From Candidatus Parcubacteria bacterium (GTDB lineage: Bacteria > Patescibacteriota > Minisyncoccia > UBA9983): DNA of 52,762 bases. A program made the translations under genes and the position numbers. The stretch is from NCBI GenBank assembly GCA_003599625.1, contig QZIU01000009.1, forward strand, positions 1-52,762, written 5' to 3'. The notes under the pieces were generated by a model. That model was given only the letters and a program-made list of their open reading frames with translations, had not been told where the DNA came from and ran no database searches. Shown piece after piece: positions 11,797 to 47,422 of this stretch (positions are counted from its first letter, which is position 1; every line of letters begins with the position of its first letter).

Positions 11797-11838
11797 GACT
11801 GTTACCTATTTTTGCTATAGCCTCGGATAGGTAACACT
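11797..11838. repeat. Tripartite palindrome, GCTATAGC family (copy 1)
   Basis: tgttacctat (11800-11809)/ataggtaaca (11827-11836) around central gctatagc. Confidence 0.8.
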
Positions 11839-11854
11839 AATAAAGGATCATTAA

Positions 11855-11885
11855 AAAAGGAAGCCGACTTGCATGGCTTCCTTTT
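11855..11885 (-). terminator. Intrinsic (bidirectional-type) terminator
   Basis: aaaaggaagcc/ggcttcctttt 11-bp stem, 21 nt downstream of the ABC exporter stop. Confidence 0.7.
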
Positions 11886-11906
11886 GAAATTTAAACATAT
11901 CTAAGC

Positions 11907-13709
11907 TTAAAAAACATGAACCTGGCTGTGAACGAGGTTCTGATACTCAAAACAAGATTTCATCAGTTCGGCATGCTTCCCTTCGCCAACGATCTTTCCT
12001 CCATTAACGACGAAAATTTTATCAGCATCCTTAATCGTAGATAACCGGTGGGCGATGATTATCGTCGTCCTTTCTTTCGCGACCTCCTTCATCGCTTGTT
12101 GAATGATGGCATCGTTCTGGGCGTCCAGATCGGATGTCGCTTCATCCAGAATCAGGATACTAGGATCTTTGATCAGCGCTCTGGCAATGCCTACTCTTTT
12201 ACACTGCCCGCCGGACAACTTTACCCCTCGTTCACCTATTATGGTATCGAAGCCATTTTCCAGGCGATGATAAAACTCGCTTACCCTCGACAGTCTTGAA
12301 ACTTTATCAAGCATCTCGTCGCTGACCAGCTCCGATTTTCCATTGAGAGGAAAGGTGATATTGTAACGCAAGGTATTGTCAAACAATAAAATTTGCTGTT
12401 CCACGATACCGACAGAATTTCTAAAATCCCGAAGGTCGAGCAATCTCAGGTCATGGCCGTCGATCAATATCTGGCCCGCGGTCGGATCATAAGCTCTCAT
12501 CAAGAGTTTGATTATGGTAGATTTACCAGATCCGGAATGTCCCACGAAGGCGGCCTTTTGCCCCGCTCTGATGATAAAATTGGCATTACTCAAAGCCTCA
12601 TGTCTTCCTTCGAAAAGTTTTGTCTCTTTTTTATTTTTTTCTTCAATGTAGTTTCTTTTGGGATAAACAAAAGAAACATTCTTGAACTCTATTTGGCCAA
12701 GATATTTCCCGGGTTTGACAGGGTTGGAAACGATTCGCACATCCGGCTCCACATCCATCATAACGAAGTAATTTTTTACGGAAGCATAGGCCGTCATCAA
12801 AATTCTTTGGATAGTTCCTATGGAAGTCATTTTACCCAACGCGCTGCTCGACCAGCTGAAAAATATCAGAAGATCTCCGGCGCTACATGAACCGTTTGAA
12901 TAGCAAACGGCTCCTGTGGCAATAACGGCAAATTTAGTCAGCCCGATGATCATGTCACGACAAGAGGAATACAGAGTGTACTTGCTCCATAACTTTTTTG
13001 AGAGGTTATTTACCGTGAATGAATCCTCGCGGTATTCGGAAATAACTCGCTCTTCCTGACTATTTAACTTCACGGTTTCGATATTCCTTAGGATCTCGGA
13101 ACGAATTTTATTATTATCGATTTCTTTTTCTTCGATTTGCCCAGCCTCTTCCTTAAATTTGCAGTTTATGTAGATATTGGCCGCAAGGTGCGCGATCATG
13201 CCAGCCAAAACCACAAAACCAAGCTTGAGGTTGATGAAAAATAAAGCCGCGGAGAAGAGAATGACTTGGATCACCACGGGAAATACTTCATACAATAAGG
13301 TATTGGTTATGGTGGCCACGGAATGTTCGCCCCTTGTTATCACATCCTGTTTGACTCCGGAGTTTTGATTTATATCCTGTCCGACAGAAAAAGTCATTAC
13401 CTTGTCTAAAGTTTTCTCGGATATATACTGGTGAGCGTCGATCCTCAGCTTGTTGATGTTGTACCAATAAAAATATCTGTCCACCACCATTGTCTGAAGA
13501 GTATAAACACCCAATGACAATACTGCCACAAGCATTATGTCCTTTGCCGATTTTCCAGCAACGAGAGCATCAAGAATTTTGCCGTAAATATATGGCGCAA
13601 TCAAATTTAGCGCTTGGCCCAAAAGAGTCAGCAATAACAGGATCGTTATCGCTTTCCAAAAGTTTCTGTAAAACTCGACAAATTTTCCGGCAAACTGTTT
13701 AAACTTCAA
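11907..13709 (-). CDS. ABC exporter, fused permease + ATPase (MsbA-like)
   Basis: N-terminal TM domain, GHSGSGKST, LSGGQCKR, LDEATS. TTG start with AAAGGAGG. Confidence 0.92.
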   Translation of the reverse strand: MKFKQFAGKFVEFYRNFWKAITILLLLTLLGQALNLIAPYIYGKILDALVAGKSAKDIMLVAVLSLGVYTLQTMVVDRYFYWYNINKLRIDAHQYISEKTLDKVMTFSVGQDINQNSGVKQDVITRGEHSVATITNTLLYEVFPVVIQVILFSAALFFINLKLGFVVLAGMIAHLAANIYINCKFKEEAGQIEEKEIDNNKIRSEILRNIETVKLNSQEERVISEYREDSFTVNNLSKKLWSKYTLYSSCRDMIIGLTKFAVIATGAVCYSNGSCSAGDLLIFFSWSSSALGKMTSIGTIQRILMTAYASVKNYFVMMDVEPDVRIVSNPVKPGKYLGQIEFKNVSFVYPKRNYIEEKNKKETKLFEGRHEALSNANFIIRAGQKAAFVGHSGSGKSTIIKLLMRAYDPTAGQILIDGHDLRLLDLRDFRNSVGIVEQQILLFDNTLRYNITFPLNGKSELVSDEMLDKVSRLSRVSEFYHRLENGFDTIIGERGVKLSGGQCKRVGIARALIKDPSILILDEATSDLDAQNDAIIQQAMKEVAKERTTIIIAHRLSTIKDADKIFVVNGGKIVGEGKHAELMKSCFEYQNLVHSQVHVF

Positions 13710-13798
13710 ATTCCGCCTCCTTTTTTAAGTTTTTAGATATAAAATTCTTAAAGAACAAGAAAAATACATATTACCACATTCCTGAACTTAGTAAATAG

Positions 13799-14872
13799 CT
13801 ACTGGAATTGGGTGATGCGGATGCCGAGGAGGCGGATCAGTTTCTTTTTGGGATTCTTGCGGCTGTCGAGATATGGCATCAAAAGTTTTAGCGCTTCTTT
13901 TTTGAGAACTCCCTGAGAGTTTGCAGGTTCTTTCATCGTGTGGGCAGATGTCTTGGTTTCAAAATCGGAAAAACGGACAGTGATGCCAACGGTTTTAAAG
14001 CTTTTAAATTCGCTTCTTTTGAATCTTTCAAAAACTCTTTCGGCGGCTTTGGCCAGCCGCTCGAAAAGAAAATTACTCTCTAAGGTATCCTTCATGAAAG
14101 TTTCCTGCTCGCCTATGGATTTGGCCTCATATTCCGTCACCAGTTCCGTTTCCCCGATTCCGCGGGCTTTGTAATACAAATCGATTCCCCATTTGCCCAA
14201 TATCTCCTCGAGTTGATCTTTGGAAAATTTCTTGATGTCTTTTATTTTTTCTATCCCTTTTCCCTTGAGCAAGATCTCCGTCTTGGGACCAACGCCGGGC
14301 AAAGCCCTTGCCGGCATTTCCGCCAAAAAATCTTCGGCGTCTTTTTCTTCCACAATGGTAAGTCCGTCCGGCTTTTGGAATCCGGAGGCGATCTTGGCGA
14401 TAAGCTTATTGGGTCCGATTCCCACCGAAGCGGTGAGATTTTCTTTTTCGCGAATTTCCGCTTTTATCTTCTGGCAAACTTCTTTGGCTTTTTCGTAAGA
14501 ACCGGCATGAGAAAGATCAAAGTAGGCTTCGTCAATACTCGCCTCTTCCACGATTGGAGAATGCTTCCCGACTATTTCCATTATTTTCCTTGAAACGGCC
14601 CCGTACTTCGCGAAATCAACCTCGAGAAATATGACACCGGGCTTGCCTTCCTTCTTGGCTTTTTCCGAAAGCTTCCAGGCCTTGCTTATTGGCGTGGCGG
14701 AAAATATGCCATACTTTCTGGCCGCGTAATTTGCCGTTGATACGACTCCCCTCCCAGTGCCTCCCGCCGGATCGGAACCTACAACTATGGGCATCCCTTT
14801 AATACCCGGCCTATCACGTTCCTCAACGGCCGCAAAAAAAGCATCCATATCTATGTGCGCGATTATCTTCAT
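13799..14872 (-). CDS. dinB: DNA polymerase IV (Y family)
   Basis: HIDMDAFFAAVE, STANYAAR, SIDEAYFD, KIASGFQKPDG; little-finger domain ending IRLLGI. Confidence 0.95.
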   Translation of the reverse strand: MKIIAHIDMDAFFAAVEERDRPGIKGMPIVVGSDPAGGTGRGVVSTANYAARKYGIFSATPISKAWKLSEKAKKEGKPGVIFLEVDFAKYGAVSRKIMEIVGKHSPIVEEASIDEAYFDLSHAGSYEKAKEVCQKIKAEIREKENLTASVGIGPNKLIAKIASGFQKPDGLTIVEEKDAEDFLAEMPARALPGVGPKTEILLKGKGIEKIKDIKKFSKDQLEEILGKWGIDLYYKARGIGETELVTEYEAKSIGEQETFMKDTLESNFLFERLAKAAERVFERFKRSEFKSFKTVGITVRFSDFETKTSAHTMKEPANSQGVLKKEALKLLMPYLDSRKNPKKKLIRLLGIRITQFQ

Positions 14873-14908
14873 GTCCCTGAAACACCACGATGTTAACCTC
14901 GCGGTGTT

Positions 14909-16591
14909 TTATTCGCGGCGTTCAAGTCCCGCGTACTCCGGCTTATTAATCTTCAGCCAGTCGAAAAATTGCTTCATGACATACGGGGCGCCGGTTGTGT
15001 TTCCGGCATGACCCTTCTCAAGCACGATAGCGAAGGCGTATTTCGGATCTTCGTAGGGATAAAAGCCGACGAGCCAAGAATGAATGAAGTCCTTCTTTCC
15101 TCCGACTTCCGCCGTCCCGGTCTTCGCCGCGATCCTAAGGTCGGGATAACTCAAGCCTTGGGCCGTCCCCTCCGTCACCGTCATTCTCATTCCTTCTTTC
15201 ACGATTTTGAAGTGTTCTTTTGACACGTCGAGCGCGTCATTTCCAACAGGCAACCGATCATTTTCCGCAAGATGAGGCGTTACTGTTTTTCCATCGTTGA
15301 CCAAAGCCGCCACATAAGCGGCTATCTCTATCGGCGTGGAAAGAAAATATCCCTGGCCGATGCTGGAAATGTAAGTGTCGCCGACTCTCCATATCGGGTC
15401 GTCGGGATTGTTTCGCGCTTTGACCTCCGGACTTGGAACCACTCCTTTGGCTTCGCCGGGAATGTCTATGCCCGTTTTCTCTCCAAGGCCGAACTTCTTC
15501 GCATATTCGTGGATTTTATTTATCCCCAGGCCTTTCAGGTCTTCGAACCCTCCGCCCACCTCATAAAAATAAACATCGGAGGAAAGGGCTATGGCCTTCT
15601 TCATGTTCACCCAGCCATGCGCTTTCCAATCCTTGAAGACGGTTTTCTTGTCCGGAAAAAACGGGTTTGGCAATGAAATGCTTCCCGAACTGTAGATCTG
15701 TTTGTCGGGCGAGACCACTCCTTCTGCCAAAGCGGCCAACGCGACAAAAGGCTTTATAACGGAACCGGGCGCGTAGAGACCGGAGATCGCCCTGTTTATG
15801 AAGGGCTTCTGCGGATCACTTATAAAACCTTTGATTTTGTCCGCCGGTCCTCCTTTGGAAAGAACATTGGAATTGTATTCGGGGAAATTGGCCATGGCAA
15901 GAATCCCGCCATCCTTTACATCAAGAATGACAGCCGCCCCCCCTTGGAAACCGCGGTCTTTGATGACAGCGGACATGTATTTGTAAAGCTGGGATTGCGT
16001 CTCCGCGTCTATCGTGAGGATCAGGTTTTTCCCGCTTGTCGGACTTGTTTGCGCGTTTTCCGATATGATATTGCCGAAGGAATCTTTTTCGATCAATTTT
16101 ACTCCGTCCATTCCGCGCAAAAGATCATTGTAACTTTCCTCGATGCCTTCTTTGCCGATCATCTCGTCGGTGAAGAGATGGCTGTTTTTATCCATCTCTT
16201 CTTTAGAAGCCAGACCGGTATAACCGAGAACGTGACTTAACCCCGGCATATCGGCATAACTTCGACCATCCTCAGAATTCCAGGCAAGGATGACTCCGTT
16301 CCGGTCGTATATAACTCCCCTTAGCGGGGCGATCCTTTCTTTTTTCAAGGTATTTCTTTCGCTTCTTTGAGCGAATTTCTCTCCCCCCGCCACCTGGAGC
16401 AGGAAGATTCGTCCAAGAAAAAACAATGTGATAAGACCAATCGCTCCCGATACGTATATATAAGTGGCTTTGCCAATCGGCTTTTCGAGGCGCCCTTCGA
16501 ACTGACTTTTGTCAAAGCCGGAAACATTGCTTGAATCCAGAAATATTTCATCCGGATCGATCTGGAATCTTTTTCGTTTTCGCCAAAACAT
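14909..16591 (-). CDS. mrdA: Penicillin-binding protein 2
   Basis: SxxK (SVIK), SxD (SSD), KTG motifs; N-terminal TM; follows mreBC. Start reset to ATG 16591 (MFWRKRK). Confidence 0.9.
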   Translation of the reverse strand: MFWRKRKRFQIDPDEIFLDSSNVSGFDKSQFEGRLEKPIGKATYIYVSGAIGLITLFFLGRIFLLQVAGGEKFAQRSERNTLKKERIAPLRGVIYDRNGVILAWNSEDGRSYADMPGLSHVLGYTGLASKEEMDKNSHLFTDEMIGKEGIEESYNDLLRGMDGVKLIEKDSFGNIISENAQTSPTSGKNLILTIDAETQSQLYKYMSAVIKDRGFQGGAAVILDVKDGGILAMANFPEYNSNVLSKGGPADKIKGFISDPQKPFINRAISGLYAPGSVIKPFVALAALAEGVVSPDKQIYSSGSISLPNPFFPDKKTVFKDWKAHGWVNMKKAIALSSDVYFYEVGGGFEDLKGLGINKIHEYAKKFGLGEKTGIDIPGEAKGVVPSPEVKARNNPDDPIWRVGDTYISSIGQGYFLSTPIEIAAYVAALVNDGKTVTPHLAENDRLPVGNDALDVSKEHFKIVKEGMRMTVTEGTAQGLSYPDLRIAAKTGTAEVGGKKDFIHSWLVGFYPYEDPKYAFAIVLEKGHAGNTTGAPYVMKQFFDWLKINKPEYAGLERRE

Positions 16592-16614
16592 TACTTTATT
16601 GTATAAAACGTTCT

Positions 16615-16878
16615 TTACCTTCCCGGAATAAAAATCTTGTCTCTCAAAATTTGGGATAAGAAAACCAAAATCAATGCCGATCCGGAAAATAGACCGAAGG
16701 CAAACGGGAAATTTTGTCCGGGCAAAGAGTAGAGAGAATCGATCGCCAGACCCGCGACAGATCCTTCCCAATAACTTCGGAAAAAGATTATAAAAAGAAA
16801 CATCAAAGAAGCGGTCACGTACCATGGCCCCGCGAAAAGAGAAACTATTAAGATGATATCGGCAATGATGCGTTTCAT
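16615..16878 (-). CDS. Small membrane protein in the mreD position (MreD-like)
   Basis: 87-aa hydrophobic ORF between mreC and mrdA; start reset to ATG 16878. Assignment is positional only. Confidence 0.45.
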   Translation of the reverse strand: MKRIIADIILIVSLFAGPWYVTASLMFLFIIFFRSYWEGSVAGLAIDSLYSLPGQNFPFAFGLFSGSALILVFLSQILRDKIFIPGR

Positions 16879-16909
16879 GAAATATGCGACGAGTAACCCG
16901 CTACTATTT

Positions 16910-17698
16910 CTATTGCTTTTCCACAAACACCTTCTGCAATTCGTTCAGGTTGACCGGCAAGTGGAACAAGATCTTTTGAAACGGACTAAGGGGATCTTTT
17001 TCGATTTTATCTATATTTCCAACAAGAATTGGTTCGCCCCCTTCGGTCAAAATTTTATCGTCCTGCTTCACTTCCACCGAGCCGGGTATCTTTATCTCGA
17101 TATTCCCCCCGCCAAGCCCTGTTCCGATGGCGTTGATTTTCGCGCCGCCGACTATCACATTAGTCTCTTCCCCGGAAAAAGAAACCAGCCTGACCTTACT
17201 GGACCGCGGGAAAACTTCCGCGATATGCCCAATGAGCGCTTCCGACGCGATAACCCTCATTCCGACGATTGCCCCGCTTTCCGAACCTGCGTCGATAATG
17301 ATCATATCATAAGGAGATTTAGGCGGCTTTGAGAGAATGTAGGAAAGGACATAATCTTTCTTGCCCATTCTCCCAAGCGAGGCTTTTAACTCCTCGCTTT
17401 CAGTCTTTATCAGCTCAAAAACGGACAGTTTGTTTTTCAATTCTTCGTTCTCCCTCCTTAACGTTTCGTTTTCTGCCGTCAGAAGACGCTTGTTCTTAAA
17501 AATACTGAGAAAGCCGTCCTTTTTCTCTTCCCCGCCGTCTCCGATTTTAAGAAAAGGAATTGAGAAAAAACCTGCCGTTCTTTTTGTCATTCTGCCGACG
17601 GCGGGATTCGTGGCAGCCAATATCAAAAAAACGGCAAAAGCCAGAAGCCACACCTTTTTACCTTTTTTTGTTTCTCTACCTTGGAGGTATGTCTTCAT
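16910..17698 (-). CDS. mreC: Rod shape-determining protein MreC
   Basis: N-terminal TM, coiled coil, IIIDAGSESG, beta domain; immediately after mreB. Confidence 0.9.
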   Translation of the reverse strand: MKTYLQGRETKKGKKVWLLAFAVFLILAATNPAVGRMTKRTAGFFSIPFLKIGDGGEEKKDGFLSIFKNKRLLTAENETLRRENEELKNKLSVFELIKTESEELKASLGRMGKKDYVLSYILSKPPKSPYDMIIIDAGSESGAIVGMRVIASEALIGHIAEVFPRSSKVRLVSFSGEETNVIVGGAKINAIGTGLGGGNIEIKIPGSVEVKQDDKILTEGGEPILVGNIDKIEKDPLSPFQKILFHLPVNLNELQKVFVEKQ

Positions 17699-18728: not shown

Positions 18729-18772
18729 TTTTTTGAATGGATCGTTTCAATATCTAGTCGCTATAGTAATTA

Positions 18773-18851
18773 AATTTTCAATTTCTAATTTTTATTAAAT
18801 TTCTAATTAGATAATTTTCAAACATCGAAAATTTAATAGAAATTGAAAATT
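18773..18851. repeat. AT-rich heptamer-like inverted repeat
   Basis: aattttcaatttcta (18773-18787)/tagaaattgaaaatt (18837-18851), perfect 15 bp. Confidence 0.75.
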
Positions 18852-18857
18852 AAGAAA

Positions 18858-20111: not shown

Positions 20112-20135
20112 ATCTCTTATGATAGAAGATAAGCT

Positions 20136-21191: not shown

Positions 21192-21196
21192 TAAAG

Positions 21197-21305: not shown

Positions 21306-21311
21306 TGAGCC

Positions 21312-22762: not shown

Positions 22763-22763
22763 A

Positions 22764-23800: not shown

Positions 23801-23841
23801 CTCACTGTCACCTATTTGCGCTATAGCACGGGATAAGTGTC
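23801..23841. repeat. Tripartite palindrome, GCTATAGC family (copy 2)
   Basis: ctcactgtcacctat is identical to 47379-47393; central gctatagc. Confidence 0.75.
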
Positions 23842-23848
23842 TTTCATG

Positions 23849-23892
23849 AAATGTTACCATTTTTAAGCTCCAGCAAAATTTCGGTAACATTT
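23849..23892. repeat. Degenerate GCTATAGC-family palindrome (copy 3)
   Basis: aaatgttacc/ggtaacattt 10-bp stem with central gctccagcaaaa. Confidence 0.6.
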
Positions 23893-30708: not shown

Positions 30709-30744
30709 TTTACACCTCCTAAGCTATAGTAGAAGAAGTGTAAA
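30709..30744. repeat. 36-bp tripartite palindrome (copy 5)
   Basis: tttacac-N7-gctatagt-N7-gtgtaaa. Confidence 0.7.
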
Positions 30745-30790
30745 TAATTTTAAGGAGAATCTTATCAATTTTATTCTTACACTTTTATCT

Positions 30791-31966
30791 CTACGCTTTC
30801 CCCGACGCTTTTTTGACGGCGGAGGCGACTGCTTTGGCCACCCGCTTGTCCAAGGCCGAAGGAATGATGTTGTCCGTCTTCAATTCCATCTTCGGAACCA
30901 GTTTGGCTATGGCGTAAGCGGCAGACAGCTTCATCTCATCGGTGATCGCTTTGGCCCGCGCGTCCAGCGCGCCCCTGAAGATTCCGGGGAAAGCCAGAGC
31001 GTTATTTATCTGATTCGGATAATCCGACCGACCCGTTCCAAAAATAAATATCTTTGCTTTCTTCGCTTCCTCATAGCTGATCTCCGGATCGGGATTGGCC
31101 ATGGCAAAAACGATCGGCTTATCGGCCATTTTCTCCACCATCTGGCCGGTCAAAACATTTCCTGCGGAAACACCGACAAAAACATCCGCGCCGTTCAAAG
31201 CCTCAGACAACCCGCCCTTTATTTTCCCTGGATTCGTAAGCGCAGCCATCTTTTCCTTATATTCATTCATTGACTCCTTTCTTCCCTCAAAAATAATCCC
31301 GGTTTGATCCAACATCAAAATATTCTTGCCGGAAATGCCCGCCCTCATAAACAGGTTGGCGCAAGCCATTGCCGCCGCCCCGGCTCCGTTTATAACCATT
31401 TTGATTTGCCCGATATTTTTTTTGGCCAATTTTAGCGCATTGATCAAAGCCGTCAAAGCCACAATAGCGGTACCATGCTGATCATCATGGAAAACGGGTA
31501 TATCCAGCTCTTTCTTAAGTCTTTCTTCGATTACAAAACATCTTGGAGCGCAAATATCTTCCAGATTTATACCGCCGAATCCAACGGCAATATTTTTTAC
31601 CGTCCTCACTATCTCCTCTTCATCTTGCGTAGCAAGGCAAATCGGAAAAGCGTCCACTCCGGCCAACTCCTTGAACAAAAGCGCTTTCCCTTCCATCACC
31701 GGCATCCCGCCTTCCGGCCCGATATTACCAAGACCGAGAACGGCCGAACCGTCGGTCACCACGGCTACCGTATTGGCTTTGATAGTATGCGTCCACATCG
31801 CTTCTTTATTTCCAGCAACCCATTTGGAAACAGCCGCCACCCCCGGCGTATAAGCCAAAGAAAGGTCTTTTTTGTCTTTTACTTTTATTTTCGGAACGAC
31901 CTCGATCTTTCCTTTAAGTTTTTTATGTAACTTGAGCGATTGTTCTCCGAAGGTGTTTTTTTTCAT
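30791..31966 (-). CDS. NAD(P)-dependent malic enzyme (stand-alone, no PTA fusion)
   Basis: LAYTPGVA, GLGNIGP, MEGKALLFK, HDDQHGTA, GAGAA, NQINNALAFPG. Confidence 0.95.
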   Translation of the reverse strand: MKKNTFGEQSLKLHKKLKGKIEVVPKIKVKDKKDLSLAYTPGVAAVSKWVAGNKEAMWTHTIKANTVAVVTDGSAVLGLGNIGPEGGMPVMEGKALLFKELAGVDAFPICLATQDEEEIVRTVKNIAVGFGGINLEDICAPRCFVIEERLKKELDIPVFHDDQHGTAIVALTALINALKLAKKNIGQIKMVINGAGAAAMACANLFMRAGISGKNILMLDQTGIIFEGRKESMNEYKEKMAALTNPGKIKGGLSEALNGADVFVGVSAGNVLTGQMVEKMADKPIVFAMANPDPEISYEEAKKAKIFIFGTGRSDYPNQINNALAFPGIFRGALDARAKAITDEMKLSAAYAIAKLVPKMELKTDNIIPSALDKRVAKAVASAVKKASGKA

Positions 31967-32023
31967 TTCTAAATTCTAGCAATTTTTTTAGCCCAAAACA
32001 ATTCCTTTAGAGACTTTCAAATG

Positions 32024-32059
32024 TTTACACTTTTGTTGCTATGGCTTAGAAAGTGTAAA
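32024..32059. repeat. 36-bp tripartite palindrome (copy 6)
   Basis: tttacac-N7-gctatggc-N7-gtgtaaa; the stem extends to 10 bp. Confidence 0.7.
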
Positions 32060-33059: not shown

Positions 33060-33071
33060 AATTATTTTAAC

Positions 33072-35585
33072 TCATCCGATCCTCAATAATCTTTGCCGTT
33101 CTATTCTTTCGATTGCCGCGGAAATATCATTTTTCTTTTCCAGAATCTCTCTCCACGGATCTCCTTTCTTTTCTATCCTCTGGCGGATGTTGAAAATATT
33201 GAAATCGGAAGGTTTTATTTTTCCACTCAACTCTTTCCAGACCAAAGGAGTCGAGACGGGCGCGCCGTCAAGCGGCCTGACGGAATAAGGGGCCGCGACC
33301 GTCTGGCCTTTTACATTCTGCAAATAATCGAGATAAACTCTGCCCCTTCTTCTGTCGGGAAGCCTCTCGAGGCTCGTGATCTCGGGAATCCGGCGGTAAG
33401 TCATATTGGCGATAATCTCGGCAAAATTCCTGCCTTGCTCATAAGTGTAATTTTCTTTCAGCGGGATGTAGATGTGAAGGCCTTTGGCTCCGGAAGTTTT
33501 GCACAATCCGAATATTCGCAGCTCATCCATGACCTTCTTCACCTCAAGAGCCACGGCCAAAACTTTGTCAAAATCCACCTCAAGCGGATCAAGATCAATA
33601 ACGACATGATCGGGACTGTCCGGAGAAAAATATCTGGAAAGCCATGGATGAATTTCGATGCAACCAAGATTAGCCATGTAGATAAGAGTCGCCCTGTTCT
33701 GGCACAGAAGATAGGAGATTTTCTTCTTTTCCGATTCAGCCCGAATATCGACGGTCTCAAGCCAGTCGGGAGAAATGCCCTTGTCTATGTCTTTGTGATA
33801 AAACGCTGGCTTTTCTATCCCCTCCGGAAATCGATGCATGGTTTCCGGTCTGTCTTTGATATAAGGCAGAATATGCGGCGCGATCTGATCGTAATAATTT
33901 ACCAGATCTTTTTTGGTGTACCCGTCTTTCGGCCAGTAAACTTTATCAAGATTGGTAAGAATGAGTTTCTTGCCATCGATCATAATCTCTTCTTCTTTTT
34001 CTTTAAGGCGATAATACCTGGGTCGCGGACGAGGCTCGCCGCCAATTAGCATAGAAAATTCTCTGACAACTTCCTTCGGGTCCTTATCTTCTCTTAATCC
34101 AATAAAAACTGGCTGCCTCATAACGCCATCCTTTGTCCATTCCCGAAATTTGATCTCGCATACGAGCTGCGGCTCAAGCCAAACTGCCGGTTCGTTTGTT
34201 TGCGGCGTTTCGATAAACGGAGAGTCCTCTCTTTTAAATCCGCTCATCTTTTCATAAAGTTCTTCTGCCGTTTTAGAATCAAAACCGGTCCCAACATGCC
34301 CGATGTATCTTAAATTATTATTCTCGTAAACCCCGAGGACTAGAGCGCCGAAATATCCTTGCCCCGCTCTTGGCAAAGTAAAACCGGCAATGACCGCTTC
34401 CTGTCTTTGCTCCGTTTTTATTTTTAACCAATCCGCGCTTCTTGCTCCCGACCGATAAGGACTGTTGAGATTCTTTGCCATCATGCCCTCCAAACCCTGC
34501 CGCCGGATCGCTTCAAAAAATCGCTGTCCTTTTTCTTCGACATAATCGGAAAGTTTAACGGAGGCAAGATCGTACTTGGAAAACAACAACCGCAAAAGTT
34601 CCCTCCTGTCTTTCAGGGCAAGTCTCCTGACATCTCGCCCGTTTAAAAAAAGCAGATCGAAAACAAAATATATCACTTGACCCTTCCGGTCGCGGCGATA
34701 ATCCTGAAGCGTCTGGAAGTCCGGTTTTCCTTCGTCATTCAATGCCACGATCTCTCCGTCCAAAACAACTCCTTCTTTAATTACTTCAAAGGAGGAAGCA
34801 ACCGTCGGATAATCTTCGTTCAACAACACATTTTTGCGGGAGTATAGTTTCGCTTTGCCGCCGGAAACGAATGCCAACGCCCGGTAACCATCCCGCTTCG
34901 GCTCGAATATCCAGTCTTTCTTGTCGAAGGCTCTATCGGCCAACTTGGCAAACATCGGCTTGACGCTTGCCGGTTCGGGAGGGCTTTCTTCGGAATTTGC
35001 CAAACCGACCTCCTCCGTTTCCACTTCTTCCACCGTTCTTCCGCTCTTTACCGATCTTTCATCAAACTTAATATTTTCATCGGCGTACTCGTCTCTTTTC
35101 TTGATCATCAGCCAGGCATTGTCTCCCCCGCGAGCCATTTTTGCCAGGGCGAATTCTCCTTGCAATTTTTTCCCCGCTAAAATTATCGTCAATCGGCCTT
35201 TATTTATGCTGTCCAAAACTTTCTCGTCAAAAGTTTTTCCCTTGCCGCTTTTTATTTCATAAGTTCCCTCATCCCATACTATCACCGGGCCAGCCCCGTA
35301 ATTTCCCTCCGGTATCACCCCTTCGAATGAGCGGTAATCGAGCGGATGATCTTCCACCATCATTGCCAACCTCTTGTCCGCCGGATTCATGGAGGGGCCT
35401 TTCGGCACCGCCCAGCTCTTCAAAACGCCGTCCGCTTCTATTCTGAAATCATAATGAAGCCTGGAAGCGGAATGTTTTTGGATCACGAAATGATATTCAT
35501 CCGCGACTTTCGGGCGGACAGGCTTTGCCGCCGGTTCGCGCGTTTTTTTGAAATTCCTTTTCCTGCCGTATTCTTCAAGGATCAT
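33072..35585 (-). CDS. ligD: DNA ligase D (phosphoesterase-ligase-polymerase)
   Basis: QKHSASRLHYDFR (PE), EPKRDGYR (ligase KxDG), DLDP and KTSGAKGLH (PrimPol). Confidence 0.96.
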   Translation of the reverse strand: MILEEYGRKRNFKKTREPAAKPVRPKVADEYHFVIQKHSASRLHYDFRIEADGVLKSWAVPKGPSMNPADKRLAMMVEDHPLDYRSFEGVIPEGNYGAGPVIVWDEGTYEIKSGKGKTFDEKVLDSINKGRLTIILAGKKLQGEFALAKMARGGDNAWLMIKKRDEYADENIKFDERSVKSGRTVEEVETEEVGLANSEESPPEPASVKPMFAKLADRAFDKKDWIFEPKRDGYRALAFVSGGKAKLYSRKNVLLNEDYPTVASSFEVIKEGVVLDGEIVALNDEGKPDFQTLQDYRRDRKGQVIYFVFDLLFLNGRDVRRLALKDRRELLRLLFSKYDLASVKLSDYVEEKGQRFFEAIRRQGLEGMMAKNLNSPYRSGARSADWLKIKTEQRQEAVIAGFTLPRAGQGYFGALVLGVYENNNLRYIGHVGTGFDSKTAEELYEKMSGFKREDSPFIETPQTNEPAVWLEPQLVCEIKFREWTKDGVMRQPVFIGLREDKDPKEVVREFSMLIGGEPRPRPRYYRLKEKEEEIMIDGKKLILTNLDKVYWPKDGYTKKDLVNYYDQIAPHILPYIKDRPETMHRFPEGIEKPAFYHKDIDKGISPDWLETVDIRAESEKKKISYLLCQNRATLIYMANLGCIEIHPWLSRYFSPDSPDHVVIDLDPLEVDFDKVLAVALEVKKVMDELRIFGLCKTSGAKGLHIYIPLKENYTYEQGRNFAEIIANMTYRRIPEITSLERLPDRRRGRVYLDYLQNVKGQTVAAPYSVRPLDGAPVSTPLVWKELSGKIKPSDFNIFNIRQRIEKKGDPWREILEKKNDISAAIERIERQRLLRIG

Positions 35586-35609
35586 TTTTGATTATTCCGC
35601 CGCTAGCTG

Positions 35610-36386
35610 TTAAGGCGAAGGTTTCGTCTTCTCCAAACTGGCCTTCAACATCTTAAGGAGATCTTCGGCCCTGGTGGGAACGGGCAATTCTTTCGAGGCG
35701 GGAACGATCATTTCTCCTTTGGCTTTCTTCTCGATTATCTCTCTCAGCTCGCCGGAATAAGTGTCATGATATTTTTCCGGTTCGAACGGCCCGGATAGAT
35801 TTTCTATAAGTTTTAACGCCGCTTCGACCTCGCTTTCGATAAATTCTTCTTTCGGCAGCTTGAGAGAAGCGGGGTCTCTTATCTGATCGGAGTATCTTAA
35901 TTTGTGCAAGATCAACAAATTAGCGTCCGGCTTGATGACGCACAAGATTTCTTTATTCCGCAAAACGAATTTTCCGATAGCCGCTTTCTTCGACCTCTTC
36001 AGGGCTTCTCTCATCAAGGTGTAAGCTTTTTCCGCCCCCTTGTCCGGCTCAAGATAATACGGCTTCTCGTAATATTTGCTTTCCACTTCGTGATCGTCCG
36101 CGAAATTCGATATATCTATCGTCTTTGTCTTTCGCACATCCACACTGTCGAAATCTTCCCGAGTAAGAATGACGTAATTCCCTTTCTTGTACTCAAAACC
36201 TTTGACAAGATCTTCATAAGAAACTTCCCGCCCGTCTTTGGAGCAAATCCTCGCGTATCTGATCGGATACGAATCCTCGCGGTGAAGCAAATGAAATTGA
36301 AACTCCCTTTCTTCGGCAGCGCTGTATAATTTAATAGGTATATTGACAAGGCCAAAACTTATCGATCCGCTCCATATGTCACGCAT
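35610..36386 (-). CDS. ku: Ku protein (NHEJ)
   Basis: W.GSISFGLVNIPIKLYSA, KGFEY, KPYYL. Start reset to ATG 36386. Confidence 0.96.
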   Translation of the reverse strand: MRDIWSGSISFGLVNIPIKLYSAAEEREFQFHLLHREDSYPIRYARICSKDGREVSYEDLVKGFEYKKGNYVILTREDFDSVDVRKTKTIDISNFADDHEVESKYYEKPYYLEPDKGAEKAYTLMREALKRSKKAAIGKFVLRNKEILCVIKPDANLLILHKLRYSDQIRDPASLKLPKEEFIESEVEAALKLIENLSGPFEPEKYHDTYSGELREIIEKKAKGEMIVPASKELPVPTRAEDLLKMLKASLEKTKPSP

Positions 36387-36511
36387 ATTCAATACCCGCC
36401 CCCGAAGCGGATACAAAAGAGGTAACTCCTCGCGGAAAATATTGGTATTATTTTAATATATTATTCTGATTCCACCGCATAACCCTGATAAAGGGGGGGA
36501 TAGCAAAGAAA

Positions 36512-37712: not shown

Positions 37713-37757
37713 ATACCCGATAAAACAATATCGGGACAAAAACAGATACAAAGATAA

Positions 37758-38858
37758 TCAAAAAACATCTGGATTTATTTTGATTATCTTATCATCCCCC
37801 TGCCTGACTTTTCCTCTCCCATCCGTGTTTGAGGTGGAAATATAAATAAATCCGTCCGGGCCGGCAACAACTGCCCTTATTCTGCCCCATTGTCTGCGAA
37901 AATGTCTTTTGATTTCCAGCTTGCCGTCAATCATTGTCGCCTGATACAGAGATTCTCCGCGCAACCCGCCAAAAAATAGAGAATTCTTCCCGCCTAAATA
38001 AGCCAATCCCGCCGGAGCCCAAGTCTCCGTCCCGGAATGGATCACGGGACTTTCCATTCCTTCCATGCTTCCGTCTCCCTGTATCGCCGGCCAGCCGTAA
38101 TTCTTGCCTTCTTCTATAAAATTTATTTCGTCAAGACCGGAAAGCGCTCCGGACCTCCCATGCTCGGTGGCCCAGAGGCGGCCTTCTTTATCCCAAGCCA
38201 ATCCCTGCGAATTGCGATGACCATAGGAATATATCAAGTTACCGAAAGGGTTATCCTCAGGAGTGGAACCGTCGTCTTTGACCCGTAAAATTTTCCCGAC
38301 CAAAGAATCCAGGCCCTGAGCCGCCTCCTCATTACCAGCATCTCCGGTTGTTACATACAGCAAACCGTCCGGTCCGAAAGCGATTCTTCCCCCGTCGTGA
38401 AAGGAACTCCCTGGGATATTGTCAATGATCACGGTTCTGTCGGATAAAATGTCATTTGCTAGGCGATATCGGATCACTTTATTAATAAAATTACCCTCAT
38501 TGTCGGTAGTGAGGTATAGATAGATCCAATTATTTTCCGCGAACTTGGGATGGACGGCCAATCCCATTAGTCCGCCTTCGCCGATATGACGCACCCCTTC
38601 TATTATGTATATTTTGTTATCTCTTATTCTCCTTAACCTCCCGGGCCGCTCCGTGACCAACATATCTCCATCTGGCAAAAAAGTTATCTCCCAAGGTATT
38701 TCAAGGTTCTCGGCGATGATTTCAAAGTTGGATTCGCCAGACTCACTATTGGTTTTATTGTCTTCTTTGTCCCCCCGCCTACCGGAAAGAAAAATTCCCG
38801 CGCCGATTGCCAAAATAACGAACAACCAGCCGTATAAGAATACTTTTCTTTTTCCCAT
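37758..38858 (-). CDS. PQQ-dependent sugar (glucose/sorbosone) dehydrogenase family, membrane-anchored
   Basis: VTERPG, GEGGLMGLA.HP.F, HDGGRI.FGPDG, YGHRN.QG, GRIRAV..GPDG. Confidence 0.9.
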   Translation of the reverse strand: MGKRKVFLYGWLFVILAIGAGIFLSGRRGDKEDNKTNSESGESNFEIIAENLEIPWEITFLPDGDMLVTERPGRLRRIRDNKIYIIEGVRHIGEGGLMGLAVHPKFAENNWIYLYLTTDNEGNFINKVIRYRLANDILSDRTVIIDNIPGSSFHDGGRIAFGPDGLLYVTTGDAGNEEAAQGLDSLVGKILRVKDDGSTPEDNPFGNLIYSYGHRNSQGLAWDKEGRLWATEHGRSGALSGLDEINFIEEGKNYGWPAIQGDGSMEGMESPVIHSGTETWAPAGLAYLGGKNSLFFGGLRGESLYQATMIDGKLEIKRHFRRQWGRIRAVVAGPDGFIYISTSNTDGRGKVRQGDDKIIKINPDVF

Positions 38859-38910
38859 GCTATTGGTTATAACACTGAACTTTCAAGGCGCTCTCTCGTT
38901 TTCTTAAATT

Positions 38911-39933: not shown

Positions 39934-39936
39934 AAT

Positions 39937-40350: not shown

Positions 40351-40351
40351 A

Positions 40352-40744: not shown

Positions 40745-40857
40745 TTCTTTATTTTGGTGTGGTTTTATAATCTTATCATACCATACTTTAATTTGAATCT
40801 CGCTTTGCCAGCCTTCCAGGTTTGAAGCCCAACCAGGCAGGTTGTCAAAGCTGGCAT

Positions 40858-41532
40858 TTACAACAAATCCAAATTTTCTTTCGTAGTTGATTCGGTTGTA
40901 TCCGAGGCGTGCTTGAACACCAGGAATTTATAACCGTAAAAGTTCCAGAACATGCCAATGACGGCGGCCAGCACGGCGGAGAACTGAGCCCAAAGCATCG
41001 GCTTCATCATCCAGAACGATTCGACCCAATTCACCAGAACATAATCTATCCCGACGTTCAGGGAAAAACCGATCAGACTTATCAAAATATATTTGCCCAC
41101 CTCCGTCTTTCGCGAGCCGCCGTGGTTGCCGGAAAAGGTCCAATATTTGTTCCAAAGATAACTGCTGACAATCCCGAGCATGAAGGAAATTCCTTTGAAG
41201 CTGGATTGTATGTAGCCTGAAGCTATCCCGGTGCTGAATATGAAGAAATTCAGAATGGCCGCGTCAAGCAAAAAATTGAACCCGCCCACCAAAGCGAATT
41301 TGCCGAACTGAAAAATAAATTTGCCGACAAATTCAGAAGCCAGTTTCGTAAGATACAATCCTCCCGCGCAAAAGAGCGGGAAGACTATCAGCAAATACCA
41401 CGCGTAAGGCAGAATGATTTTTATTGCCGGATTCTCCACGCTCAAATTTCTGCCCACGAAGATCATCATCGAAGCGGCGAAGAATCCTATGGCCAAAGCT
41501 AAAAGCAAGTCTGTTTTTTTGATCCGGGGCAT
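40858..41532 (-). CDS. GtrA-family membrane protein
   Basis: KFALVGGFNFLLD, SYLWNKYWTF, WNFYGYKFLVF. Confidence 0.85.
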   Translation of the reverse strand: MPRIKKTDLLLALAIGFFAASMMIFVGRNLSVENPAIKIILPYAWYLLIVFPLFCAGGLYLTKLASEFVGKFIFQFGKFALVGGFNFLLDAAILNFFIFSTGIASGYIQSSFKGISFMLGIVSSYLWNKYWTFSGNHGGSRKTEVGKYILISLIGFSLNVGIDYVLVNWVESFWMMKPMLWAQFSAVLAAVIGMFWNFYGYKFLVFKHASDTTESTTKENLDLL

Positions 41533-41535
41533 TTT

Positions 41536-44301: not shown

Positions 44302-44332
44302 ATGTTTCCATTATACCCTGCCATTTAGAAAT

Positions 44333-45136
44333 TTAAAAATATTTAAAATAAATTTTATTGCCAAAGCGCAGATCTATGTAATCTAAGTTTTTCCTTTTTT
44401 CTTTGACGCTTGATTCCAGTGTCGTGACGAGATTGGCAAAAGTCTTCTCCGGTTCATTTCTGTCGTTCAAGACCATTTTCCAGCCTTCTTTGGTCGCCAG
44501 TTCATAAATATTTTCCGGCTTGAGATATATCTCAGTCACCTCAAAACCATTTTTTGCCGCCAGTTCGCTGAAACTCATCAGCGTATCAAATTCTTCCTGC
44601 TTTAAGAAATAGGAACCAATGACGACAGGACTTGAAGAAGCCGATCCCCTCTCGTCAAAGAACTTGATAAATATGGCGCCTGAAAAATAAGGAGCCTTTT
44701 CAAAAACAAAAGCTTCCTCATCAATGAACGCGCAATCTTCCTCATGGCAGAAAAGCGCCTTGTTTTCTCTTTCAACGATTTTGACTTTAAGCTTGTCGGG
44801 CAGATCGCCGTCCAAATAAATTTCTTTTATTCTCTTGATTTCCGCGGGCAAATCCTTCTCAATTTCTTTTTTAGGGATCAAAAAAACATTCGATTTCGGA
44901 ATGAAAAGAAAAATATTTCCCTCCAGCTTCTTTAGTACGGCTAAATTAAGCTCTCCTTCGGAAACAAATTTATTTCCCTCAACCGCCACATTGTCCACTT
45001 TCAAATATTCGATATTGAAGAAGGCAACCGCTGAAGCGCAAAACAGAATGGCGGCCAAAGCGTAAAAAGAGACTCGTAAAATAAGTCTCTTCCTGCGAAT
45101 CTTTCTTGAGGAGGCGAGATAGTCTTTGCGAGCCAT
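44333..45136 (-). CDS. ftsQ: FtsQ/DivIB-like cell division protein
   Basis: Basic N-terminus, single TM, POTRA (V.VEGN), C-terminal YIDLRFGNKIY. Confidence 0.7.
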   Translation of the reverse strand: MARKDYLASSRKIRRKRLILRVSFYALAAILFCASAVAFFNIEYLKVDNVAVEGNKFVSEGELNLAVLKKLEGNIFLFIPKSNVFLIPKKEIEKDLPAEIKRIKEIYLDGDLPDKLKVKIVERENKALFCHEEDCAFIDEEAFVFEKAPYFSGAIFIKFFDERGSASSSPVVIGSYFLKQEEFDTLMSFSELAAKNGFEVTEIYLKPENIYELATKEGWKMVLNDRNEPEKTFANLVTTLESSVKEKRKNLDYIDLRFGNKIYFKYF

Positions 45137-45141
45137 TGCTT

Positions 45142-46416
45142 TTACCCCATCTTCTCCTTGCCCATGTATTTTCTAAGAGGTTCCGGAATGACGACACTGC
45201 CGTCGGCCTGCTGGAAATTTTCCACGATAGCCACAAGGACACGAGGTGTCGGGACAGCCGTGCTGTTTAAAGAGTGCGCGAATCTGAGCTTTCCATTTTC
45301 GTCTTTATACCGGATATTGAGTCTTCTCGTTTGGAAGTCATGGAAGTAAGAAGCCGAGCTTATCTCCCTGTATTTGTTTTCGTTCGGAACCCAAAGTTCG
45401 ATGTCATATTTTTTGACCTGGCCAAGCCCGAGATCGCCGCCGCAGTTCACCACCGTCCGATAAGGAATGCCGAGCGATTCCACGAATTCTTCCGTATTTC
45501 TGTTAACCCATTCATGCCACTTGACGGACTCTTGATGATCCGCCTCGCATAGCACTACCTGCTCCAGTTTAAAAAATTCATGCACGCGGATAAGCCCCTT
45601 CACGTCCTTGCCGTAGCTCCCGGCTTCCCTTCTGAAACAAGGCGAGAAGCACAAGAACTTTTTGGGCAGATCTTTTTTATCCAAAACTTCGTCGGAATAA
45701 TAACCCATGGTCGCCACTTCCGCCGTCCCGGCAAGATAATCATTGTCTTGCGTCCTGTAAAGATCTTCTTCTCCTTGAGGCAAATAACCTGTGCCATACA
45801 TTTGTTCTTTGCGAACAAGCGAAGGCACGATCATTGGAGTGAACCCGCCCTTCTTCATGAAAAATTCTACGCCGTATTGCCACACGGCGTAAGATAAAAG
45901 CGCGCCGTCATTCTTTAAAAAGTATCCCCGGAAGCCAGCCACCTTCGTCCCCCTTTCAAAGTCCGCCATATCAAGCTTTTGCATCAGCTGTATCTGATCT
46001 TTAGGTTCAAAACCTTTCGCTTTGAAATCGGGGATATCGCCCCAAGTTTTCACTTCCGCGTTTTGCGCGTCGTTTTCTCCTTCGGGAACAGACATGTCCG
46101 GAATATTGGGCGCCTGAAGCATCAGTTCTTTCCAAGCATCATTGGCCTTCCTCAAATCTTCCACCCGGGCCAAAAGCTTTTCCTTTAAAATCCTCATTTC
46201 GCCGATTGCCGTCTGCCTTTGCGCGGGATCCTGGAGCTTGGAGATACTGTCGCTGACGGCATTCTGCTTGGCGCGCATTTCCTCCACCTCTTTTAAAATC
46301 TTGAGCCTCGCGTCATCGGCTTCCAAAAGTTTGTCCACGTCAAACTTGATATGCTTTTTCCGAGCCGCTTCTTTGATCAACTCTCCGTTTTCCCGAATGA
46401 ATTTGATGTCGAGCAT
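45142..46416 (-). CDS. serS: Serine--tRNA ligase
   Basis: MLDIKFIREN, CFRREAG, RVHEFFK, EISSAS, HSLNST. Start reset to ATG 46416. Confidence 0.97.
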   Translation of the reverse strand: MLDIKFIRENGELIKEAARKKHIKFDVDKLLEADDARLKILKEVEEMRAKQNAVSDSISKLQDPAQRQTAIGEMRILKEKLLARVEDLRKANDAWKELMLQAPNIPDMSVPEGENDAQNAEVKTWGDIPDFKAKGFEPKDQIQLMQKLDMADFERGTKVAGFRGYFLKNDGALLSYAVWQYGVEFFMKKGGFTPMIVPSLVRKEQMYGTGYLPQGEEDLYRTQDNDYLAGTAEVATMGYYSDEVLDKKDLPKKFLCFSPCFRREAGSYGKDVKGLIRVHEFFKLEQVVLCEADHQESVKWHEWVNRNTEEFVESLGIPYRTVVNCGGDLGLGQVKKYDIELWVPNENKYREISSASYFHDFQTRRLNIRYKDENGKLRFAHSLNSTAVPTPRVLVAIVENFQQADGSVVIPEPLRKYMGKEKMG

Positions 46417-46452
46417 ACCGTTAATCTTAACAAATATGCTAAAATAATCAAA

Positions 46453-47310
46453 ATGTCGCGCAAAATTATCAAGCCCAACAATTACCCGTCGCTTTTGAAG
46501 CAAATTCCCGATCCGCCGAAACAGTTATATATGGAAGGCGAATTACCATCGGAGAATGCTCTTTATCTTGCCGTTGTCGGCGCCAGAAAATTCACGACTT
46601 ACGGGAAAGAAGCTTGCGAGAAGATCATCAGCGGCTTGAAAAACAAATCCAGGCAAATAATCATCGTAAGCGGCTTGGCCATCGGCATAGACGGTATCGC
46701 CCACAGAGCCGCTTTGGCCAACGGACTCGCGACCGTGGCCATTCCCGGCTCGGGATTAAGCGACAATGTCCTGCATCCTCGTTCAAACGTGAAGCTGTCA
46801 AAAGATATCGTAAGAGCCGGAGGATGCTTGATCTCGGAGCTTGATTGGGAAATACCCGCGGGCATGCACACTTTTCCATCCAGAAACCGCATAATTGCCG
46901 GGATGTCCAATGCCGTTTTGGTAATCGAAGCGGCGGAAAAGAGCGGAACGCTTATCACTGCCAATCTCGCGTTGGAATACAATCGGGATGTCTTAGCCAT
47001 TCCCGGCTCCATTTTTTCGGAAAACTCAAAGGGCACCAATAGACTTATCAAATCCGGAGCAACGCCAATTTTTTCAGGAGAAGATATTTTGGAAGCTTTT
47101 GACATTCCGAAAGAAAAAGAAAATCTAAAACTGGAATTTCCAGATGATTCAGTTGAAGAAAAAATTTATTCCCTGCTGTCAGAACCGATGCAGCGGGATG
47201 AACTCATCAGAAAAACAGGCCTCCCCCCGGCCAAAGCCAATCCAGCCCTCTCAATGATGATATTGAACGGCATCATCAAAGAATCCGGCGGCGAAATATT
47301 CAGGGTATAA
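46453..47310 (+). CDS. dprA: DNA-processing protein DprA
   Basis: AVVGAR, VSGLAIGID..AH, FPSRNRIIAG, SGTLITA, PGSIF, C-terminal winged helix. Start reset to ATG 46453. Confidence 0.95.
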   Translation: MSRKIIKPNNYPSLLKQIPDPPKQLYMEGELPSENALYLAVVGARKFTTYGKEACEKIISGLKNKSRQIIIVSGLAIGIDGIAHRAALANGLATVAIPGSGLSDNVLHPRSNVKLSKDIVRAGGCLISELDWEIPAGMHTFPSRNRIIAGMSNAVLVIEAAEKSGTLITANLALEYNRDVLAIPGSIFSENSKGTNRLIKSGATPIFSGEDILEAFDIPKEKENLKLEFPDDSVEEKIYSLLSEPMQRDELIRKTGLPPAKANPALSMMILNGIIKESGGEIFRV

Positions 47311-47378
47311 TACGACCTAAGCGTTTCAATTAAATTCTCTCGACCAAAGACCAGCTCAGCATTACTATGGCGCAGCGC

Positions 47379-47422
47379 CTCACTGTCACCTATCCGAGGC
47401 TATAGCAAAATGGGTGTCAGTC
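47379..47422. repeat. Tripartite palindrome, GCTATAGC family (copy 4)
   Basis: 47389-47410 is the exact reverse complement of 11810-11831; 47379-47393 is identical to 23801-23815. Confidence 0.8.

Follow-up and report, generated by a model that had tools for sequence, protein, structure and literature searches.

Dispersed intergenic palindromes of a Parcubacteria contig belong to a repeat family associated with a small PaaX-type protein in the Candidate Phyla Radiation

Repetitive extragenic palindromic (REP) elements and REPIN doublets are short multicopy palindromes dispersed in extragenic space. Their cognate gene, which encodes a Y1 HUH transposase (REP-associated tyrosine transposase, RAYT), is flanked by copies and has its own repeat type, gene and repeats co-diverge vertically, copies derive from one another, and a GTAG-type head lies next to the stem. 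CIRCE is a long inverted repeat with a fixed spacer and a very wide bacterial range, which occurs in one sequence only before chaperone operons and has a dedicated winged-helix repressor, HrcA. In the KorB/OB system of IncP plasmids and in ParB/parS, one dimeric protein serves a dozen or more palindromic sites, some promoter-proximal and some far from promoters. PaaX of Escherichia coli is a dimeric repressor with the binding site TGATTC-N27-GAATCA; at its own promoter it acts by sterically hindering RNA polymerase (PMC9493321). Here, we analyse six intergenic palindromes (E1 to E6) in a stretch of 52,762 nucleotides from a Candidatus Parcubacteria bacterium (contig QZIU01000009.1 of assembly GCA_003599625.1, positions 1 to 52,762 of the forward strand; hereafter the window). 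They appear to be real copies of a repeat that is widespread in bacteria of the Candidate Phyla Radiation (CPR) and is associated there with a small PaaX-like protein. This CPR-wide system is apparently undescribed, as searches of the accessible literature for the motif, for PaaX in CPR bacteria and for PaaX_M returned no description of the protein-palindrome pair.

Inspection of the sequence located all six elements where a preliminary description of this DNA had placed them, and in one register, KTYAC-N8/9-GCTNNAGC-N9-GTRAM, with GCTNNAGC as the central 8-mer (Table 1, where coordinates follow this refined register with the core central). E1, E2 and E6 constitute subtype A with the consensus TGTYACCTAT-N4/5-GCTATAGC-N3/5-ATRRGTRWCA, E4 and E5 constitute subtype B (TTTACAC-N7-RCTATRGC-N7-GTGTAAA), and E3 retains the family geometry with GTTACC arms and a GCTCCAGC core. 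The inverted identity of 22 nt between two copies 35 kb apart and the identity of 15 nt that had been reported are both real, although the numbering of the copies had slipped: the former joins E1 and E6 and measures 23 nt (TTTTGCTATAGCCTCGGATAGGT), the latter joins E2 and E6 (CTCACTGTCACCTAT). E6 on the plus strand and E1 on the minus strand are alike over about 58 nt, including the non-palindromic spacers and a tail, CAGTCRRAAAAAGAAA(A)GAT, beyond the palindrome. The core GCTATAGC occurs three times in the window where 0.22 occurrences are expected. Tripartite sites, defined as a GCTNNAGC-like core with perfect inverted arms of at least 7 bp, occur five times (E1, E3, E4, E5 and one site inside an open reading frame, ORF), and E1, E3, E4 and E5 all lie within the intergenic DNA that makes up about 8.5% of the window. 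The chance origin that the preliminary description had named as its null case is contradicted by 200 first-order Markov simulations, in which such sites are rarer (mean 0.46, maximum 2). Many other, unrelated intergenic hairpins in the window might invite the view that chance palindromes or ordinary terminators merely look alike here. Given this excess, the same blocks in 90 metagenome loci and the specific gene association described below, that view deserves hardly any credence; the family is real, and chance does not explain it.

A scan of metagenomes with the E1-type pattern ACCTAT-N4/5-GCTATAGC-N3/5-ATRRGT yielded 90 loci. Groundwater and sediment samples contributed most of them, and most match on both strands. 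Most matches are palindromes of 40-44 bp with the fixed blocks ACCTAT and GCTATAGC, and family palindromes reach about 22 nt either side of the centre. E1 is the window copy that has both arms intact (ACCTAT...ATAGGT), like most of these loci. Removal of duplicates left 65 unique sites, 53 of which are outside called ORFs (42 between two genes and 11 at contig ends), the non-coding share of the sequence being 14.6%. Copies of one population (the Ga0180009 group) share oriented, non-palindromic spacers (ACCTAT-CCYNY-GCTATAGC-AYYRA-ATAGGT), and tails of 20-45 nt are common to some copies (about 45 nt in L066/L040; also E1/E6). Copies with such shared spacers and tails therefore arose by copying of a unit larger than the putative binding site. 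The tail of about 45 nt (TACAAAA...CTATATAACTSTCACGACCGTGAG) that L066, L040 and L110:965 have in common also carries its own small hairpin, suggesting a composite repeat unit of at least 80 nt.

Three sets of candidates were set aside. A scan of GTDB genome contigs with a pattern that followed E1, E2 and E6 too closely gave one chance match inside an ORF (L007). Four single-strand matches on viral contigs (three near-identical, one a related variant) have no palindromic arms and are look-alikes that resemble L017, itself a match inside an ORF. The copy pair in L067 is an assembly artefact on a self-inverted chimeric contig with mirror-image ORFs.

The palindromes are associated with one protein family. 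In each of L045, L061 and L064, two copies at a distance of 620-770 bp enclose a single gene for a PaaX_M protein of about 185 amino acids, and a PaaX_M gene is directly beside the palindrome in 24 of the 90 loci. Among the 86 genes flanking the unique sites, PaaX_M is the sole recurrent family (8 of 45 genes with the site on their 5' side and 6 of 41 with the site on their 3' side); no other family reached three occurrences, and nearly all had one. The association was also found in a motif-blind test, for which the contigs of eight homologues from a protein search were fetched (P0123, P0167, P0205, P0230, P0144, P0148, P0187 and P0215). A palindrome follows the stop codon by 20-75 nt in all eight and also precedes the ATG in seven, by 31-59 nt in six and by 141 nt in one. 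Small ORFs past the downstream palindromes are not homologous to one another.

We use the name mini-PaaX for this winged-helix and Cas2-like (PaaX_M) protein of about 185 amino acids. The Pfam domain PaaX_M (PF20803, the Cas2-like central domain of PaaX) covers its C-terminal half with E values of 1e-20 to 1e-21. In an AlphaFold2 model (predicted local distance difference test score 79), a beta-alpha-beta-beta-alpha-beta domain comes after a winged helix. Among PDB structures, E. coli PaaX (8a39, E 2.8e-5) matches the model best; MarR-type winged helices and Cas2 proteins rank next. The protein ends after the Cas2-like domain, in which the aspartate of an FDIPE motif and a QKSVF motif are invariant in 45 sequences. 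We found 482 homologues at E <= 1e-10, and every named one comes from Patescibacteria, where it is annotated as hypothetical, 'Cas2' or 'PaaX'. Counted in clusters at 50% identity, the family comprises 541 clusters at E <= 1e-30 and 2565 at E <= 1e-10.

Palindrome and protein vary together, as the pair of outer block and core follows the mini-PaaX clade. The block ACCTAT or GCCTAT with the core GCTATAGC or GCTATCGC accompanies P0121, P0123, P0205 and P0187. Other clades have other pairs: ATACAT with GTCATGAC for P0167, GTCATATAA with GTYATRAC for P0230, TATCCCAAT with TAGCYATGGCTA for P0215, CCACACAA with AGACGATAGTCT for P0144, and CTAGTTTATA with GCTATCGC for P0148. P0121, P0144 and P0148 are paralogues of 60-65% identity named as one metagenome-assembled genome, and their palindromes differ from one another. 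Covariation of this kind would be expected of cognate protein-DNA pairs with insulated specificities. From adjacency and covariation we infer that mini-PaaX binds the palindromes directly and sequence-specifically, and cognate recognition as such, function aside, is likely on these sequence comparisons.

Synteny connects the window to this system. L110 and L111 are syntenic with the window between 14.9 and 23.8 kb (holB, frr, rseP, proS, mreB, mreC, pbp2), at identities of 45-48% for frr, 46-47% for rseP and 62-68% for mreB. Both have a mini-PaaX gene and palindromes immediately upstream of the holB-frr-rseP block, the slot at which the window has E3 and E2 plus a Fic/RhuM gene, without a mini-PaaX gene. 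The tandem palindromes TGTTGCCTAT-AATT-GCTATAGC and TGTCGCCTAT-TTTT-GCTATAGC of L111 are the nearest relatives of E1 and E2. In E4 and E5, the ACACYT block (10-15 nt from the centre) occupies the same register as an ACACAT variant beside mini-PaaX genes in L056 and L015. Protein-family scans of the window ORFs found no mini-PaaX gene anywhere in it, so all six elements are orphan sites.

Three mini-PaaX neighbourhoods recur across distant CPR lineages. The gene lies at RecJ-RNaseH-ComEC in L045, L098, L100 and L103, in some cases separating the gene of the ComEC channel from that of its split MBL domain; upstream of holB-frr-rseP-proS-mreBC-pbp2 in L110 and L111; and next to a VirD4/TraG-like DUF8128 ATPase in L109 and L112. 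These recurring settings hint at a link to DNA uptake and core growth genes.

The reading that we favour, with a probability of roughly 0.55, is that the palindromes are cognate sites of a PaaX-type dimer (binding is predicted), that they are autoregulatory at the dimer's own gene, and that they have given rise to REP-like orphan copies. Mini-PaaX, a CPR-specific family, would dimerise through its Cas2-like PaaX_M domain, and its two N-terminal winged helices would contact the outer blocks, which span positions 10-18 to the left and right of the centre. These putative half-sites, GTYACCTAT in subtype A and TTTACACYT in subtype B, would be spaced about 25-28 bp apart, with the central 8-mer (GCTATAGC) as a possible second, clade-specific determinant. 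Two palindromes would act at the regulator's own gene, one on each side of the coding sequence. In L098 and L045 an extended -10 element (TGgTAGAAT and TGgTAGTAT, respectively) begins 22 nt after ATAGGT; therefore the upstream palindrome, with a dimer bound to it, would cover the -35 region. Autorepression, as at the Px promoter of PaaX, would be the expected effect. Orphan copies may have arisen when a unit slightly longer than the palindrome was duplicated into other intergenic DNA. They would be retained whatever promoters are nearby, most likely serving as operators, roadblocks or titration sites that the protein additionally occupies. The window's genome would then have to encode the cognate gene or genes elsewhere; two or three paralogues, serving subtype A, subtype B and E3, are probable.

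Both PaaX and mini-PaaX combine a winged helix with a Cas2-like dimerisation domain, and both are accompanied by a long palindrome with widely spaced (in mini-PaaX, predicted) half-sites, at 25-28 bp from centre to centre in the family versus 33 bp in the PaaX operator. The position of the family palindrome over the -35 region of the regulator's own promoter likewise recalls PaaX. Unlike PaaX, however, mini-PaaX is without the C-terminal effector domain, which is phenylacetyl-CoA-responsive in PaaX, and no paa genes occur in any mini-PaaX neighbourhood examined. Around a conserved central 8-mer, its sites are symmetric even at variable positions; they flank the gene on either side and also occur as dozens of orphans, in intergenic regions of any kind, and a genome may have several paralogues with distinct specificities. 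The family shares with CIRCE the long inverted repeat, the fixed spacer, the very wide bacterial range and a dedicated winged-helix repressor (here predicted), but its targets are not conserved and its sequence diversifies with the protein clade. The many sites, near to and far from promoters, recall KorB/OB and ParB/parS; those proteins, however, have a ParB/helix-turn-helix fold instead of a winged helix joined to a Cas2-like domain, no linkage to a partition ATPase was seen for the family, and its sites are chromosomal and CPR-specific. Among the three explanations offered in the preliminary description, operators of an unknown dimeric regulator came closest: a candidate protein with bracketing palindromes that covary by clade can now be named.

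Several findings weigh against the favoured reading. The window itself has six sites and no mini-PaaX gene, and E3, E4 and E5 would be members by shared geometry and partial block identity only. Orphan sites fall into tandem, divergent and convergent intergenic regions in the proportions of the background (28/7/7 versus 135/41/39), with no depletion in convergent regions; no preferred distance of orphan sites to extended -10 motifs was found, and among the 86 flanking genes no orthologous target recurs apart from PaaX_M. This distribution, which includes the convergent E6, fits a classical regulon poorly. The palindromes are also more symmetric than recognition would demand. Arm positions that are not conserved (5-9 and 16-22, counted from the centre) are complementary to each other in 52-79% of sites versus 25-34% expected from base composition, 13 of 64 unique sites are perfect palindromes of 44 bp, and one block of L100 has even changed from ATACAT to ATGTAT, a flip that is compensated. 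Duplex binding by a plain dimer does not call for such symmetry, which points to hairpin or cruciform formation or to homogenisation of the arms by template switching.

It is tempting to see in these features a REPIN/RAYT-like system, in which mini-PaaX would bind hairpin or cruciform forms of the palindromes and use its Cas2-fold domain to nick and mobilise them, the orphans being actively dispersed copies and the bracketed gene an analogue of RAYT. The site distribution that ignores promoter context, the symmetry kept at variable positions and the compensated block changes would all suit it. So would a vertically inherited gene that is bracketed by its own palindromes and co-diverges with them, a palindrome type for each paralogue, the invariant FDIPE aspartate and QKSVF motif of the Cas2-like domain, and the spacers and tails shared by E1 and E6 and by the Ga0180009 group, including L066/L040. 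The family thus resembles REP elements in extragenic dispersal (six of six sites in the window and 53 of 65 in the metagenomes), in copies flanking the cognate gene, in one type per gene, in co-divergence and in copying. The cognate protein, however, is no Y1 HUH transposase. Neither the window nor the 86 flanking genes contain Y1_Tnp or any other known transposase chemistry, and the role of PaaX_M in PaaX is dimerisation; a single weak Y1_Tnp gene came up (L109, 15424-16146), with no palindrome beside it. Between positions 16 and 22, counted from the centre, there is no conserved tetranucleotide of the GTAG-head type. REP elements are far more numerous than the copies here (six in 52.8 kb, fewer in other loci), and no REPIN doublet structure is established. 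Recent transposition does not account for the two copies that lie 600 bp apart in L064: each is a perfect palindrome, but they share none of the variable positions. No target-site duplication and no pair of filled and empty sites was seen, there being no close relatives to compare. On balance we consider mobilisation of this kind unlikely. A broader version, in which mini-PaaX and its palindromes form a self-propagating CPR repeat system of a new kind, functionally analogous to REPIN-RAYT, the winged-helix and Cas2-fold protein recognising the palindromes as hairpins or cruciforms, keeping them symmetric and copying them into new intergenic positions, strikes us as distinctly doubtful.

The preliminary description had also proposed REP-like elements. 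As a description of behaviour this stands, the window sites being strictly intergenic and indifferent to promoters and the copies sharing idiosyncratic spacers and tails; a RAYT/IS200 partner was found neither in the window nor beside the 65 unique sites. Its statement that the window has no transposase holds for the roughly 50 ORFs scanned by Pfam or NCBIfam, among which there is likewise no recombinase, RAYT or integrase. With regard to miniature inverted-repeat transposable elements and insertion sequence ends, no transposase was found in the window or among the flanking genes, and the copies share tails, implying copying.

Long palindromes between genes could also act as RNA. The stems, near-perfect over about 20 bp with a loop of 4 nt, would make good double-stranded RNA, many copies are situated just after stop codons, and the relatives of Cas2 include RNases (SSO8090 is among the structure matches). 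The palindromes might accordingly be terminators, sites for RNase III or other processing, or stability elements, with mini-PaaX as an RNA-binding or RNA-cleaving Cas2-like protein. Mismatches of the G.U type, however, have no strand bias relative to the flanking genes (28 sense versus 22 antisense), which places the symmetry in the DNA rather than in a transcript. The two strands are conserved symmetrically, no T-run or U-tract follows the arms or stems, the spacers of the window elements do not pair, and Rfam has no match at the elements. Upstream copies precede the -10 element of the gene that they front, and E1 comes after a canonical terminator. An RNA function is quite improbable on these grounds. 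Intrinsic terminators in particular were rejected, as no T-run follows the arms, the mismatches lack strand bias and E1 is beside a separate canonical terminator.

The arm-core-arm layout is reminiscent of lox and dif sites, and the palindromes could be site-specific recombination or cassette-junction sites (attC, dif or lox type) that mark gained single genes, as the preliminary description had suggested. E5 and E4, in mutually inverted orientation, bracket the malic-enzyme gene (30709-32059) much as pairs bracket mini-PaaX genes, the neighbours of this gene differ in relatives, and E3 and E2 are at a synteny break. Yet no integrase, Xer or other recombinase is beside the 65 unique sites or in the window, and variable arms around a palindromic, conserved core are the opposite of lox/dif logic. 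For the malic enzyme (30791-31966) no identical protein is on record; it has a best match of 83% identity, followed by matches at about 77%, the named ones being from Candidatus Paceibacterota, Zambryskibacteria and similar, which assigns the window to a CPR (Patescibacteria) bacterium. At the malic-enzyme loci of the nearest relatives (L001-L006, 77-83% amino acid identity) the neighbours differ and no element or footprint is beside the gene, although these relatives are too diverged for a comparison of filled and empty sites. Recombination sites are very improbable in our view, and that proposal is not upheld: only the bracketing of the malic-enzyme gene resembles a cassette. Integron attC sites are imperfect R''-L''/L'-R' palindromes with GTTRRRY ends, found in gene-attC arrays with an integron integrase nearby. 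They were considered separately and rejected, since no integrase occurs in the window or beside the sites and the family palindromes are symmetric with a conserved centre.

CPR bacteria (Patescibacteria) make up a large share of bacterial diversity and have tiny genomes with few recognisable regulators, and to our knowledge almost nothing is known of how they control and organise their DNA. Mini-PaaX would add a protein family with specific, predictable DNA sites, in which several paralogues per genome have separate specificities. The pairs offer a directly testable protein-DNA recognition code in uncultivated bacteria and could help to locate promoters and operon boundaries in CPR genomes. 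They also lend themselves to the question of how the sequence of a long palindrome can drift without loss of its perfect symmetry.

Table 1. Palindromic elements of the window and the features adjoining E1
Feature	Position	Strand	Sequence or type	Core	Remarks
E1, subtype A orphan palindrome	11800-11836	.	TGTTACCTAT-TTTT-GCTATAGC-CTCGG-ATAGGTAACA	11814-11821	perfect 10-bp arms
E2, subtype A orphan palindrome	23806-23842	.	TGTCACCTAT-TTGC-GCTATAGC-ACGGG-ATAAGTGTCT	23820-23827	7/9 arm pairs
E3, divergent copy	23849-23892	.	AAATGTTACC-N8-GCTCCAGC-N8-GGTAACATTT	23867-23874	perfect 10-bp arms
E4, subtype B orphan palindrome	30709-30744	.	TTTACAC-N7-GCTATAGT-N7-GTGTAAA	30723-30730	
E5, subtype B orphan palindrome	32024-32059	.	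TTTACACTTT-TGTT-GCTATGGC-TTAG-AAAGTGTAAA	32038-32045	perfect 10-bp arms
E6, subtype A orphan palindrome, right arm decayed	47384-47420	.	TGTCACCTAT-CCGAG-GCTATAGC-AAA-ATGGGTGTCAG	47399-47406	common tail to ~47440
tRNA-Gln(TTG) gene	11668-11740	-			E1 centre ~77 nt upstream of first base; promoter-like TTGCGG...TGgTAGACT between
Intrinsic terminator of ABC-transporter gene	11855-11885	-	GC-rich hairpin + T-run		just upstream of E1 on coding strand

The genes of the window are nearly all on the minus strand and of housekeeping type (aminoacyl-tRNA synthetases, MreBC, PBP2, LigD/Ku, DprA, clamp-loader subunits, ABC transporters); a HepT/MNT pair and the Fic/RhuM gene are also encoded. According to Rfam and ARAGORN, tRNA-Gln is the only RNA gene. 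E1 lies between the ABC-transporter terminator and the tRNA-Gln promoter, 41 nt upstream of TGgTAGACT, and because this terminator precedes E1 its spacer is probably not transcribed. E2, separated from E3 by 7 bp, is 29 nt upstream of the extended -10 element TGgTATTAT of the Fic/RhuM gene. E4 is 20 nt upstream of TTGACA-N17-TAACCT, the putative promoter of an inositol-phosphatase-family gene, and E5 is 45 nt upstream of TGcTAGAAT, the putative promoter of the malic-enzyme gene. E6 is between dprA and pheT, where no promoter is expected because the two genes converge. The malic-enzyme gene appears to be leaderless (31964-31981, minus strand), with TGcTAGAAT followed after 6 nt by the ATG. Promoters in the window contig and its relatives look like extended -10 elements in general (TGnTAnnnT), often without a good -35.

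Further palindromes and related sequences were noticed in the window. A 30-bp palindrome at 14880-14909 (AAACACC-N16-GGTGTTT with a GTTAAC centre), between the PBP2 stop and the DinB start, has arms 2 nt nearer the centre than the family register, which makes its assignment to the family undecidable. In the mreB-proS spacer (18745-18782), GCTATAGT is flanked by direct, not inverted, TTTCAAT repeats and may be a decayed copy. An intergenic palindrome at 3305-3345 (AATTGGACTGGT-N17-ACCAGTCCAATT) has perfect 12-bp arms and no T-run, is unrelated to the family core and may be another type of site. A 40-bp palindrome at 37751-37790 (AAGATAATCAAAA-N14-TTTTGATTATCTT) spans the junction of the glucose/sorbosone-dehydrogenase and GDSL-lipase genes.

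Three other features stand apart from the palindromes. An (ATT)n microsatellite of about 12 units occupies positions 102-139 at the contig end. The PheT homologue (47449-48732) has just 427 amino acids and matches only the C-terminal half of bacterial PheT (B5, core and anticodon-binding domains). A full-length LigD with phosphoesterase, ligase and primase-polymerase domains (33072-36416) adjoins Ku, which gives this reduced CPR genome a complete pair for non-homologous end joining.

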